Below are positions 50,762 to 56,951 of a stretch of 60,865 bases of DNA, piece after piece. The DNA is taken from NCBI GenBank assembly GCA_030740155.1, contig JASLXV010000093.1:1-60865 (forward strand), given 5' to 3'. The stretch comes from Dehalococcoidia bacterium (GTDB lineage: Bacteria; Chloroflexota; Dehalococcoidia; Lucifugimonadales; UBA3495). Below the pieces are notes generated by a model. It had not been told where the DNA came from, made no database searches, and worked only from the letters and a program-made list of their open reading frames with translations. The translations under genes and the position numbers were made by a program. The number at the start of each line of letters is the position of its first letter. The first letter of the stretch is position 1.

Positions 50762-51149
50762 GCTGCCTCCGTTAACCCGTGGCGTCCAGAATCCCCGCCG
50801 GTGCGGCCCCGCCGGCCGATTTCCGGCCACGGGCCCTTCCACCTGCAAGCAGGTTCCTGCTTCAACACCCCCTCTCTGAACCAATACCCGATGCCCGTTG
50901 CCGGCGGCGCCACGAAGCACGAGAAATGGAAGGGCGCAGGTCACCGGGACTCCCTCCGAAAAACGATGAAGGGTTGACTGGGTTGGCCCAGCCTATTCGC
51001 TGCGCCTGTTCAAGGTGGAAGGGCGCGCCCAGCACCCTGTTCCCGGAGGATGTCGCCCAACAGCGGGGATAAGCGCCAGCGATCGATTGACCTCCCAACC
51101 GTCGATGTTGCCGGAGTCGGCGGAGCGAAGTTTCGGGGACACGGGGTGC

Positions 51150-51425
51150 GCTCAGGTTGGCCAGATCTCGCGATAGGACCAGACCGTCGCGCACCAAGAC
51201 GTGCCCCAAGGGCTGGCGTTCCTTCCAGGCTGTCTCCTGGGCCTTGGCCACTTCGTCGGCGGGTATTATGCTGGCGTCCAGCAGCATCTGGGCCAGGGAG
51301 AATCTGCGGCCCCGAGCCCACTGTTCCGCCACGTCTTGCACCGTTCCCACGGCGCCCGAGTCGGCCTGCTGGGCATCCAGGAGGCTGTTTCCGTCGGTTT
51401 CGGGCCGGCCACTCTCAATGTCCAT
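51150..51425 (-). pseudogene. N-terminal (MshEN-like) fragment of a PilB/GspE secretion ATPase
   Basis: SLAQMLLDASII..DEV.KAQ...KERQPLGHVLVRDGLV..RDL two-repeat pattern, then non-protein-like sequence; no Walker motifs. Confidence 0.55.
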
Positions 51426-52717: not shown

Positions 52718-53083
52718 TTGAATGTACTAGGACTTCATCTCTTGTTGGAACTCAAGGAGTGCAATCCCGCACTTCTCAACGACCTCGAATACATTCGTGA
52801 GGCGTTGCTGGACACGGCTCGAGACGTGGGGGCCACGGTCGTCGGGGAGTCGTTTCACCGGTTTAGCCCCCAGGGAGTGACCGGCATTCTGGCGATAGCC
52901 GAATCTCACATATCGATCCACACGTGGCCGGAGTACTGCTACGCTGCTGCCGACATTTTCGCGTGTGGGGCCTCATTCCAACCCAAAGATGCCGCCGAGA
53001 TGCTAGTCAGACGGCTGGAGTCACGGGACCCGGAAGTTGTGGAAGTCCAACGGGGGCTGCCCCTCAAGGCAGTGGCCAGCTAA
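52718..53083 (+). CDS. speD: S-adenosylmethionine decarboxylase proenzyme
   Basis: G.HLL.EL..C, F.PQGVT....AESHISIHTWPE..YAA.DIF.CG self-cleavage site. Confidence 0.93.
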   Translation: MNVLGLHLLLELKECNPALLNDLEYIREALLDTARDVGATVVGESFHRFSPQGVTGILAIAESHISIHTWPEYCYAAADIFACGASFQPKDAAEMLVRRLESRDPEVVEVQRGLPLKAVAS

Positions 53084-53104
53084 ACTCCGGGACCCGGCAA
53101 GGGC

Positions 53105-54016
53105 ATGGATATATCAGGAAAATGGTTCCTTGAGACAGTATTTCCGGACCTGGCAATAATGCTCCGGGTCCGGAAAGTTCTCTATTCCGGTGAGACCGCC
53201 TATCAGAAGGTGGAAGTGCTGGAGTCGGAGATTTACGGCCGCAGCCTGGTTTTGGACGGAAAGACCCAGTCCACCGAGCGGGACGAGCACGTCTACCACG
53301 AGGCCCTGGTGCACCCGGCAATGTTGCTGCACCCGGGACCAACTTCAGTGTTCATTGGGGGTGGGGGAGAAGGGGGCACGCTGAGGGAGGTGCTGGCCCA
53401 TAAATCCGTGGAGCGCGTGGCCATGCTGGACCTTGACCGGGAGGTGGTGGAGCTTTGCCGGCGCCACTTGCCGAGCCATCATCAGGGTAGCTTCGACGAT
53501 CCGAGGGTGATGCTTGCCCACCAAGACGCCAGGGGATTCCTGGCCAGTTGCGACGAGACCTTCGACGTGATGATCATGGACCTGGTCGACCCCATGGAGG
53601 GAGGGCCGGCGTATCTCCTCTACACAGAGGAGTACTACCGGATCGCCAAGGCCAAGCTGAGACCGGGAGGAATTCTGGTGACCCAGTCCGGACCTGCCGG
53701 ACTGCTCAGCTACCAGGAGTGCTTTACCACAATCCGCAACACTCTGGCCGGCGTCTTCAAGCACACCGCTCCGGCCCAGGTGCACATTCCAGCTTTCCAG
53801 ACCCTTTGGGGTTTTACACTGGCGTCAGACACGCCGCTGGCTCTACCCACCGATGAGCAGGTAGACCGCTCGCTGGCGGAGCGGGTATCCAAAGAGCTGA
53901 AGTTCTACGACGGAGAAAGCCATCGCGGCATGTTCGCGTTGCCCAAATTTCTCCGGACCGGGTTCCGGCAGGAGACCCGGATGAACCGGGACGCCGACCC
54001 GGTGTTCATGATCTGA
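53105..54016 (+). CDS. speE: Polyamine aminopropyltransferase (spermidine synthase family)
   Basis: LVLDG..QS.E.DE..YHE.LVHP, IGGGEGG.LRE, D..IMDL.DP, LYT.EYY; adjacent to speD. Confidence 0.92.
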   Translation: MDISGKWFLETVFPDLAIMLRVRKVLYSGETAYQKVEVLESEIYGRSLVLDGKTQSTERDEHVYHEALVHPAMLLHPGPTSVFIGGGGEGGTLREVLAHKSVERVAMLDLDREVVELCRRHLPSHHQGSFDDPRVMLAHQDARGFLASCDETFDVMIMDLVDPMEGGPAYLLYTEEYYRIAKAKLRPGGILVTQSGPAGLLSYQECFTTIRNTLAGVFKHTAPAQVHIPAFQTLWGFTLASDTPLALPTDEQVDRSLAERVSKELKFYDGESHRGMFALPKFLRTGFRQETRMNRDADPVFMI

Positions 54017-54552: not shown

Positions 54553-56616
54553 CTAATGCTTGCCGTTGGGCTGGATCAGCACCCGGGTCGTGCCGTCGGT
54601 GTCTTTGCGCTGGGTAAGCAGGTGATGCCCCGCTTTTTCAGCCCACAAGATAACGTCGTAGATGTTAAGGGCGTCGGCCAGGATGGCTTCAACGAAGGCT
54701 CCGTGGTCGGTCTCCATCTGCCGGGTCAGCGCCGCGATTACGCCGGCGCAACTCTTGCCGCGGCCATCTATGATTACCCATCCTCCGTTGGCGCCGTTGG
54801 CGCCGTTAGCCCCGTTGGCGCCGTTGCCCGTTGACGGCCGCGCCGCGGGCTCCGCGTGGACGTTAACCTCTCCGCTCTTCCGCAGCTCCAGCTCCCGCCG
54901 GAATTCAGCGACCGCCTCCCAGTTGACGGCCATGTCCCGCTCTCCTTTGCTGCACACGGCGCCGCGCACGCCCACGATATCCGGGTTGATCCGCGCCAAC
55001 TCGTCCAGGTCATCAACCTTGAGATGGCCCGACAGGGAAGTGCTCAGCCCCAACTCTTTGCCCTGCAGGACCATGTCCTTCAGGTCTGCTTCCGGAATGA
55101 AGTCGAACAGGTTCCGCCCGTCTTTGGTCAGGGTGTCGATCAAGAACCCGTCGCACTCGCCTTCCTTGGCCAGCTGGATCATCAGGTACGGGTCCAGCCC
55201 GTCGTAGAGGGGGTTGTCGGCGAACAGGGAGCCGATCAATTTGGTGTTGAAGCCCTCCATCGCCCGCCGCGCTTGCCGCAGGGTCTCCACCGCAGTGGCG
55301 TAGTCCGTTTTGCAGAAGCCGACCTTAACCGAGGTGGCGTCCAAGACCGCGGCCGCGTAGGCGGCCATTGCCACCGTGCCCGGCTGGCCGGGCACCACGC
55401 CCAGGGTCACGCTCACGTGTTTCTCGACCGGGACCTGGGCGCGCACCTGTTGCACCACCAGGGGGTGACCGGAACCGACCAGCGCTTCCTGCAGGTTTTT
55501 CACGTCGACCACGTCGGCTCCGCCCCGTTCCGCTTCCAGGGCTTCCTCGACGTTCTGGACGCTGACCATCAAGAGCATCCCGGAGAAGAAACTGTTGTTG
55601 CCGGTGAGCCAGGATACCCGGTTGTTGACCGGGGCGGCGGCTACCGGGGGTTGAGGCTTCAACGGCTCCAGCTCCCGGGCCAGGGCGGCCTTTTCCTCGG
55701 GTGCGAGGTTGGCCAGGGGGGGCCTGACCTCGCCGCCGGCCATTCCCATCAGCTCGCTCCAGTACTTCACCACGGAGACCGGCAGCGCCCCATTGTATTT
55801 GGTTACGGTCCGGGTCCACCAGGTGTCGGACAGCTCTTTGATCCGCCGCAAATGGGTTTCGTAGAACTGCTCGTCCAGGTCTCCCTTGGTGGCACGATCG
55901 ATGAACTGGACGTAGTAGTTGCACTCCGGTGTGTCGAAGCGCCAGTCGGAGGTGTTGGCGAACATCACTTGCTGCTGGAACCCCAGCTCCTTGGCTTTCC
56001 AGAAGATCCACTCGTCGGGCGTGCTGATTATCGACTCTTTGCCCAGGGTCAAGTGGGCCTCGATGGACAGCTGCTGATTGAAGCTGGCTTCCTTGACCCC
56101 GACGACGTTGGGTATTTGACACACTCGTTTCAGCGCTTGTGGGCTGAGCACGATGCCGAATTGGGGAGAATTGTAGAACATGATCGCCATCGATGTGTTG
56201 TCCGCCAGCAGCCGCACGTAGTCGATGACCTGCTCCTCCGTCTTGGTCACGAAGTAAGGCGGCGCCACGATAAGCAGGTCGAAGCCCACGGCCTCGGCAT
56301 GGCCGGCCAGTGCCAGCATCTCCGGAGCGGAGGTATGGGTCACGTGGGCGCCGATAGGCCATTGCCCTTTGGCCTCGTCAGCCAGAATGTCCATGACTTG
56401 GACCCGCTCATTGTGGGTGAGGCTCCAAAACTCGCCCATTCCCCAGGTGCAACCCGCGCCCCTGGTGCCCAGCTTCCGGATGTGGCGAATATTGCGCCTC
56501 ATCCCTTCCTCGTCGATGGCGTTATCCGGGGTGAACGGGGTGATGAGCGTGGTCCATTGGGCCCTCAGTGTTTCCCAGGCCCAATCTTGTACCTCGCTTT
56601 TGGTGTATCTTGCCAT
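54553..56616 (-). CDS. Three-domain fusion: DapA/DHDPS-family aldolase + (5-formylfuran-3-yl)methyl phosphate synthase (MfnB/DUF556)-like + TusA-like domain
   Basis: LITPF, GMGEFWSL, FYNSP, GVKEAS; then MLLMVSVQNVEEA.EA..GGADVVDVKN, VKVG, IDT.TKDG, SGHL, PDIVGVRGAVC; then IDGRGKSC...DV..WA...GH..L; AGGGAGG RBS. Confidence 0.8.
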   Translation of the reverse strand: MARYTKSEVQDWAWETLRAQWTTLITPFTPDNAIDEEGMRRNIRHIRKLGTRGAGCTWGMGEFWSLTHNERVQVMDILADEAKGQWPIGAHVTHTSAPEMLALAGHAEAVGFDLLIVAPPYFVTKTEEQVIDYVRLLADNTSMAIMFYNSPQFGIVLSPQALKRVCQIPNVVGVKEASFNQQLSIEAHLTLGKESIISTPDEWIFWKAKELGFQQQVMFANTSDWRFDTPECNYYVQFIDRATKGDLDEQFYETHLRRIKELSDTWWTRTVTKYNGALPVSVVKYWSELMGMAGGEVRPPLANLAPEEKAALARELEPLKPQPPVAAAPVNNRVSWLTGNNSFFSGMLLMVSVQNVEEALEAERGGADVVDVKNLQEALVGSGHPLVVQQVRAQVPVEKHVSVTLGVVPGQPGTVAMAAYAAAVLDATSVKVGFCKTDYATAVETLRQARRAMEGFNTKLIGSLFADNPLYDGLDPYLMIQLAKEGECDGFLIDTLTKDGRNLFDFIPEADLKDMVLQGKELGLSTSLSGHLKVDDLDELARINPDIVGVRGAVCSKGERDMAVNWEAVAEFRRELELRKSGEVNVHAEPAARPSTGNGANGANGANGANGGWVIIDGRGKSCAGVIAALTRQMETDHGAFVEAILADALNIYDVILWAEKAGHHLLTQRKDTDGTTRVLIQPNGKH
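54785..54833. repeat. In-frame 9-bp tandem repeat encoding a GNGANGANGANGANG linker
   Basis: ccgttggcg/ccgttagcc units occur four times, plus shorter ccgttg units. Confidence 0.85.
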
Positions 56617-56951
56617 GTATTCCTCCCTGGCGGCATGTGATGCAGGCCAGCATCGTTGACGCCGTACCTTGCTATTCTACTGTGCGGACAATAGTCCAGT
56701 CCACCATCCCCTGGGTGATGGCAGCGGCGGCCCGCCATGATCCGTTGAGCCCGGCGGGTCTGAGGGAAACGTCAATTCAAGGCGTCTCTGGCCGCAATAA
56801 CCAGTAGGAGAGGCCGAACAGTCGTTGTTTGGGTGGTTAGTTTGCCGATGAATCCATGCAGAAAGGAAACGGAGCATACATGGCGTAAAGCCAAAGTTTG
56901 GCCAATGTCCGTATTGCGAGATTCATGCTGAATGCGGGCCGGCCGCCTCTC

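Follow-up and report, generated by a model that had tools for sequence, protein, structure and literature searches.

What does a protein make that joins two aldolase-type barrels to a TusA-like domain? The question is raised by a gene in a 60,865-nucleotide stretch of DNA from a Dehalococcoidia bacterium (assembly GCA_030740155.1, contig JASLXV010000093.1, positions 1 to 60,865; hereafter the window), where a single open frame of 687 aa at 54553–56616 on the reverse strand encodes a dihydrodipicolinate synthase/N-acetylneuraminate lyase (DHDPS/NAL)-superfamily barrel (N), an MfnB-like barrel (M) and a small TusA-like domain (T). The trio N, M and T, conserved in Dehalococcoidia of the SAR202 type and in Thermoplasmata-type archaea, is the unit, and it is without a described function in the literature searched, which took in few subscription papers. 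In the bacterial genomes checked it occurs with the late menaquinone gene mqnL, in place of the known early routes, with one genome (G303) as exception. Judging from sequence and gene content, we hold it somewhat probable that the trio replaces the MqnA-E and Men enzymes and makes the dihydroxy-aromatic carboxylate head group of a respiratory quinone. The new element is how the trio, the two known quinone routes and an importer complement one another in their distribution.

A conserved fusion of three domains

The sequence-only reading had described one uninterrupted frame with three modules, which was confirmed by the frame itself and by Pfam and fold matches, and every motif that it quoted was found at the position given. 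On the reverse strand, the N barrel (aa 1–322, 55651–56616) was identified by Pfam PF00701, a homologue alignment and a tree, and the M barrel (aa 346–588, 54853–55581) by Pfam, a fold match and aligned residues, while the T domain, of the TusA/SirA/YeeD fold (aa 612–684, 54565–54783), was recognized by fold match and an invariant Cys623. Linker 1 (aa 323–345, 55582–55650) is of varying length and is the place where relatives split into two genes; linker 2 (aa 589–611, 54784–54852) consists of Gly/Asn/Ala repeats. The Pfam matches were clear for DHDPS (aa 22–317, E 1e-32) and 4HFCP_synth (aa 349–572, E 8e-55), and that of TusA (aa 615–682) fell just short with 26.9 bits against a cut-off of 28.6, its assignment being carried by the fold. 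A structure model of the full length displayed two barrels and a small domain (predicted template modelling score 0.48) and does not give the domain arrangement; both linkers were of low confidence, with a predicted local distance difference test score (pLDDT) <50 at aa 325–344 and likewise low values at 589–611. Predicting a complex of T with N and M gave a score of 0.00, which was counted neither way. A ribosome-binding-like GGGAGGA is located just upstream of the start ATG (56621–56627, reverse strand), and in the sequence no such run precedes the internal ATG at 55578, as had been noted earlier.

The fusion is real and conserved, and the join that the earlier reading had wanted checked was upheld. 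A homologue search yielded 501 matches, of which the best 120 cover 99–100% of the query at 75–92% identity, with source names, where stated, of SAR202/Chloroflexi. All three domains stand in one frame at 37 of 40 genome loci, the remaining three being frameshifted, split or ended by a contig edge, and 39 of the 40 are titled Dehalococcoidia or Chloroflexota. Both domain joins are bridged by contigs from an independent run (X14) with 0 differences. An assembly chimera was ruled out by these full-length homologues, one-frame loci and bridging contigs. Parts of the gene are also covered by contigs from RNA libraries, a coverage that does not demonstrate transcription. A promoter scan gave 2 sites versus 0.9 expected and was not used; a motif scan gave 0 matches in viral contigs.

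The N barrel shares the fold, the Schiff-base Lys175 and Tyr148 with the aldolases DapA, NanA and 2-keto-3-deoxygluconate (KDG) aldolase, but differs from them in its GXXGE loop, which reads WGMGE, or WNMGE, without Ser/Thr; TPDE and FANTSDWRFD are further subfamily motifs. K175, Y148, W58, M60, G61 and E62 were present in 240 of 240 homologues. The barrel lies below every NCBIfam cut-off, has ∼22% identity to solved structures and falls within an uncharacterised wider family in the tree; we presume a likeness to the hydratase-aldolases NahE/PhdJ. The statement that it is no true DapA was borne out, since the DapA model TIGR00674 scores the fusion at 84.6 bits versus a cut-off of 206 and a separate dapA (325 bits) is encoded by the same genome on contig C26; DapA identity is excluded by this score, the WGMGE loop and the separate gene. 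The models of KD(P)G aldolase, NanA and KdgD gave 50 versus 390, 66–70 versus 281–382 and 84–100 versus 278–374 bits, respectively. The idea that a KD(P)G-type aldolase releases glyceraldehyde-3-phosphate for the M barrel found no support, given the 50 versus 390 bits of the archaeal KDG aldolase model and the loop lacking Ser/Thr.

The M barrel resembles MfnB/MJ1099 (PF04476; PDB 4RC1, 4U9P) in fold (template modelling score 0.85 by target) and in six aligned residues, D371, K373, K431, D494, K498 and R560, corresponding to MJ1099 D25, K27, K85, D151, K155 and R217, among which we take D25, K85 and D151 to be catalytic positions. A review describes two lysines and two aspartates of MfnB as essential, with Lys27 forming the Schiff base, and a chemistry in which two trioses lose phosphate, undergo aldol condensation, cyclise and are dehydrated (PMC6604932); another paper ties K155 and R217 to substrate binding (PMC11365854). 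Unlike MfnB, the M barrel lacks the GD aspartate and the AGS serine and is tied to N and T: GD is changed to GV at 407, AGS to SGH at 529–531 and PxEGSLG to LQEALVG. Throughout the M clade the GD aspartate is replaced by Val, Ala or Ser and AGS by SGH or SGA, whereas all rows outside the clade keep the aspartate except the intermediate P0394. The clade is separate from canonical MfnB with 100% support in the Shimodaira–Hasegawa-like approximate likelihood ratio test, and the MfnB equivalogs NF002573 and NF002575 score the barrel at 186.7 versus 341 and 179.7 versus 304 bits. Because of its own clade, the lost GD aspartate and the changed AGS, the M barrel, read from its sequence, should act in the manner of MfnB and yet is probably no synthase of 4-(hydroxymethyl)-2-furancarboxaldehyde phosphate (4-HFC-P).

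The TusA-like identity of the third module was substantiated. Modelled alone (pLDDT 93.7), the T domain matches 3hz7 (SirA-like, Z 12.6), 3lvj (Escherichia coli TusA, Z 11.3) and 8j4c (YeeD/TsuB, Z 11.2), and a search with its profile picked up the TusA-like Ta1170 (E 0.002). Cys623 (codon 54748–54750) occupies the TusA persulfide position at the start of helix 1 and is shared by all 240 homologues compared and by the five archaeal T domains. Unlike TusA carriers, the domain has CAG or CxG(V/I/L)I where TusA has CPxP, thus lacking the prolines, and is fused to or stands beside an aldolase pair; a persulfide role is predicted. The genome encodes five PF00266 proteins, a candidate cysteine desulfurase family.

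Distribution of the trio and of the quinone routes

Carriers were counted in a class sample of 301 Dehalococcoidia genomes, which comprised 21 of them in five families after one of 22 initial matches, G076, had been removed for holding only distant N-like proteins (38–39%) and no MfnB; with 31 further carriers the total is 52, a completeness of at least 90% and a contamination of at most 5% being known for 12 of these. The trio is present at one locus in 20 of the 21, with 66–92% identity across families. Two fusion versions (P0083 and P0102) carry locus tags of one SAR202 assembly, some assemblies having two copies, and G087 likewise yielded two fusion matches. In five genomes (G274, G191, G206, G016 and G141) adjacent N and M+T genes take the place of the fusion. 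When metagenomes were scanned once for a stand-alone M protein, 10 loci were obtained; of those that are long enough, L105, L106, L107 and L111 encode M, T and N as three genes, L108 has M+T fused with N convergent, and L109 has M and T followed by an aminotransferase. The L105 protein is named by its source as of a Thermoplasmata archaeon and L108 and L109 carry archaeal housekeeping genes; in the M and the N trees, which share their shape, archaeal members branch as sisters of the bacterial ones.

Could the M barrel be a true 4-HFC-P synthase after all, feeding a methanofuran-like C1 carrier? The complete MfnB catalytic core and the MJ1099 fold match would fit, and yet we regard this as highly improbable: besides the low equivalog score and the separate clade with changed motifs, ftr and mfnF were each found in 0 of the 52 carrier genomes, with two methanogen controls positive, and mch was not found in the source genome, the one genome searched. 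By contrast, the sole canonical mfnB found in Chloroflexota, in G354, has mfnF, an mfnD-type ATP-grasp ligase and genes related to pterins around it; when 401 genomes from across the phylum were sampled, PF04476 matched 2, namely the source genome and one canonical mfnB. The methanofuran-type furan pathway that had been considered, with any link to tetrahydromethanopterin, is rejected on account of the ftr, mfnF and mch not found and the distinct M subfamily.

The menaquinone head group is known to be made by the Men and the futalosine route; the sequence-only reading had drawn no link to quinone synthesis. The source genome (93.7% complete) holds an mqnL-mqnP-ubiX-menG run on contig C95, its MqnL scoring above cut-off with 633 bits, and had no MqnA/D, MenB or MenD match above cut-off, while its MqnC-like match is CofH. 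MqnL (TIGR03701) was detected in 58 of the 301 genomes, i.e. in 19 of 21 carriers versus 39 of 280 non-carriers; the two carriers without it are 55% and 57% complete. It was also detected in 30 of the 31 further carriers, hence in 49 of 52 overall. The reverse was observed for MenB (105 of 301), which occurred in 0 of 21 carriers versus 105 of 280 others. None of the 21 carriers has the MqnA+MqnD pair, and none of the 13 genomes with MqnA, MqnD and two or three MqnC/E-type matches has MfnB. With the exception of G303, carriers have at most one MqnC/E-type match, at 337–354 bits, like the CofH of the source genome, which was the one checked. The MqnA-E and Men enzymes almost never share a genome with the trio in the samples examined.

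The 58 MqnL genomes divide into 13 with futalosine genes, 19 with the trio and 26 with neither. In 18 of the 26 (16 of these belong to family f11), the mqn operon includes a gene for an NMT1/THI5-type ABC binding protein; of the other eight, one has MenB, one futalosine fragments at contig ends and one, outside the operon, a homologue of this binding protein (40%), and five are unexplained. The transporter, located inside the mqnL-mqnP-ubiX operon (L083:13498-16089, L084, L086, L091 and L158-L171), is by its sequence a candidate importer of the quinone head group. It was not found in the three carrier genomes searched whole, nor near mqnL in the 21 carriers.

Alternatively, the product of the trio could be a different cofactor or small metabolite with no part in quinone synthesis, such as a derivative of a furan, a thiophene or a thio-sugar; shared ancestry would then account for the co-occurrence with mqnL, and the quinone precursor would be salvaged. 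We regard this as unlikely, though it is the strongest of the alternatives. Against it speaks that trio and futalosine genes alternate within family f39 and within the source genome's order: of 15 f39 genomes 10 have the trio only, three futalosine genes only and two neither, and in the MqnL tree the futalosine genomes nest among the trio genomes. The importer of non-carriers, not found in the carriers searched, likewise argues against it, and no user enzyme recurs among the neighbours. Its favourable points, taken up below, concern linkage, family range and two individual genes.

For the quinone head group, the late enzymes also bear on the product. Carrier sequences of MqnP and MqnL intermingle with futalosine ones rather than standing apart, and a substrate-shift test of MqnL and MqnP (21 and 20 carriers versus 14 and 13 futalosine sequences) gave no carrier-specific column and, in MqnL, one futalosine-specific column. 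Because MqnP and MqnL are without carrier-specific columns, the carrier product should resemble the futalosine product. A 2026 survey counts the Chloroflexota as one of the lineages for which no quinone pathway is known and anticipates that quinones are still to be discovered (PMC13386864), and a keyword search of its supplements gave no matches for carrier lineages in the per-genome table. The source genome has a heme-copper oxidase and no cytochrome b (PF00033) match, and alternative complex III was not searched for; its quinol-oxidising complex is therefore unexplained, and a Rieske-motif test of high versus low potential quinone is impossible since cytochrome b was not matched.

A proposed route to the head group

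From the observed anatomy, retained catalytic residues and gene distribution we infer the ring steps and the role of sulfur. The trio would carry out a housekeeping biosynthetic step yielding 1,4-dihydroxy-6-naphthoate or a close isostere, which would then be prenylated by MqnP, decarboxylated by MqnL/UbiX and methylated by MenG. The M barrel may bind triose phosphates via Lys373, eliminate phosphate and condense a pair of C3 units, giving a reactive C6 product (a dicarbonyl or a quinoid) rather than a furan, the GD aspartate being lost; in a variant eliminating both phosphates, 2 glyceraldehyde-3-phosphate minus 2 phosphate minus 2 water would give benzoquinone. The T domain, on flexible linkers, would use Cys623 to carry an intermediate or to deliver persulfide sulfur. 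DHDPS-type enzymes add pyruvate via a lysine Schiff base, leaving its carboxylate on the new ring, and the N barrel would in like manner add a pyruvate-type 2-oxo acid via Lys175 and supply the carboxylate-bearing second ring.

The second ring could be closed in two ways, although substrates other than those named here are conceivable. With Cys623 as covalent carrier, quinoid plus 2 pyruvate minus 2 water would give a dihydroxynaphthalene dicarboxylate, which balances arithmetically. With Cys623 as sulfur donor, a role that the sequence-only reading had already raised, quinoid plus pyruvate plus persulfide sulfur minus water would give 4,7-dihydroxybenzothiophene-2-carboxylate; overall, 2 glyceraldehyde-3-phosphate, pyruvate and persulfide sulfur would be converted to this product, 2 phosphate and 3 water, balanced in atoms and redox. 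The sulfur version would give each of the three domains its family role and lead to a ring of the sulfolobusquinone type, the product being an isostere of 1,4-dihydroxy-6-naphthoate which unchanged MqnP, MqnL and MenG would turn into a benzothiophene quinone. That the fusion is a one-protein synthase of this sulfur-containing quinone ring is a tentative proposal, and we rate it as rather unlikely.

The trio would fill the same slot as MqnA-E and MenFDHCEB, i.e. head-group supply to MqnP, MqnL and MenG, but is non-homologous to them, having two Schiff-base barrels and a Cys carrier and no radical-SAM enzymes. The ring expected of the sulfur version is that of sulfolobusquinone and caldariellaquinone of the Sulfolobales, where the benzothiophene ring is derived from tyrosine. 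Control searches gave no PF04476 match in Sulfolobus acidocaldarius, and with a tyrosine-derived ring there, the trio would be a separate route to such rings. Thiophene-bearing quinone head groups are described in PMC13471030.

Neighbouring genes and the weight of the quinone reading

No conserved operon was found across the 40 genome loci or in 15 carrier contexts. In two f39 genomes (G236 and G262) the trio lies between ctaA-ctaB and coxB-led oxidase genes. The trio of G016 faces a gene fragment of the UbiE/MenG family. In the window, speD-speE (52718–54016, forward strand) is convergent to the fusion, an arrangement shared by 8 of the 40 related loci that looks like close-kin synteny, and speD/speE and acs adjoin the fusion only in close kin. 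Farther off, an open reading frame at 50862–51425 (reverse strand) contains two LxxxLxxxxxI/V repeats and looks truncated; we take these repeats to be like the MshEN c-di-GMP-binding motif of PilB/GspE N-termini.

The neighbours also bear on a catabolic or detoxifying cleavage module, in which N would be a hydratase-aldolase like NahE/PhdJ, M would open a furan or dispose of a dicarbonyl and Cys623 would trap an electrophile. A glyoxalase-family gene follows the fusion in genus g87, and two distant N-family aldolases of G076 (38–39%; L155 and L156) stand beside a fumarate-reductase-type flavoprotein and a 2Fe-2S protein, with UbiD also at L155, possibly a catabolic cluster that hints at the wider chemistry of the N family; SAR202 bacteria have expanded sets of catabolic paralogues according to PMC10444878. 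Such a module is nevertheless improbable, as the trio sits at one locus in nearly all class-sample carriers at high identity across families, no transporter, oxygenase or regulator recurs near the trio in the loci examined, and the exclusion of mqnA-E and menB would be left unexplained.

Several observations weigh against the trio as source of the quinone head group, some of them favouring a cofactor unrelated to quinones. All evidence is correlation among kin in only five families, so that naive Fisher values overstate it, kin not being independent; the distribution test took in bacterial carriers only, and the MenB counts cover the 301-genome sample. The trio's neighbours vary between loci, and no mqnL, mqnP or ubiX was found beside it at the carrier loci searched. 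In the archaeal loci L105 and L106 the N gene is followed on the same strand by an adenylylsulfate kinase gene, in one lineage only, which counts in favour of such a cofactor. A MenA-like gene of the source genome (C85:73340-74371, L076), at 102.5 versus 102.15 bits and accompanied by no menB or menD, is borderline, and salvage of 1,4-dihydroxy-2-naphthoate is therefore possible. The exception G303 holds the trio together with an mqnE-mqnA-mqnC cluster (L118:5552-8897), both frameshifted, a double occurrence that may come from assembly error, decay or contamination. Furthermore, 25 of the 52 carriers have one or two divergent MqnA-like genes, away from the mqn operon where examined; seven were aligned, and in six of these the conserved Asn17 is missing; no score typical of MqnD was seen. 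In MqnA, this Asn is described as absolutely conserved (PMC9672406). These genes (L082:4558-5481, L113-L117, L120-L123 and L125) often stand beside a gene like that of methylenetetrahydrofolate reductase. The importer was also found beside the mqn genes of the futalosine genome G007, and G034 (97% complete) has mqnL-ubiX-mqnP with no trio, futalosine genes or importer match; since G034 is without any identified source, other head-group supplies exist. This genome also has a nitroreductase gene that separates mqnL from ubiX (L085:68-4227). Lastly, we know of no precedent for the proposed ring chemistry.

If the trio does supply the head group, it would be a third route to it, employing a pair of aldolase barrels together with a cysteine carrier, and would give the MfnB-type barrel its first role outside methanofuran. 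It would also explain the quinone of several Dehalococcoidia/SAR202-type lineages in which genome surveys find no pathway. In the sulfur version, the ring would be made without chorismate or radical-SAM chemistry, and the trio would be a possible new source of thiophene quinones, which are discussed as biomarkers in PMC13471030; a thiophene quinone, reported to date from the Sulfolobales, would then serve in the respiration of abundant ocean bacteria.

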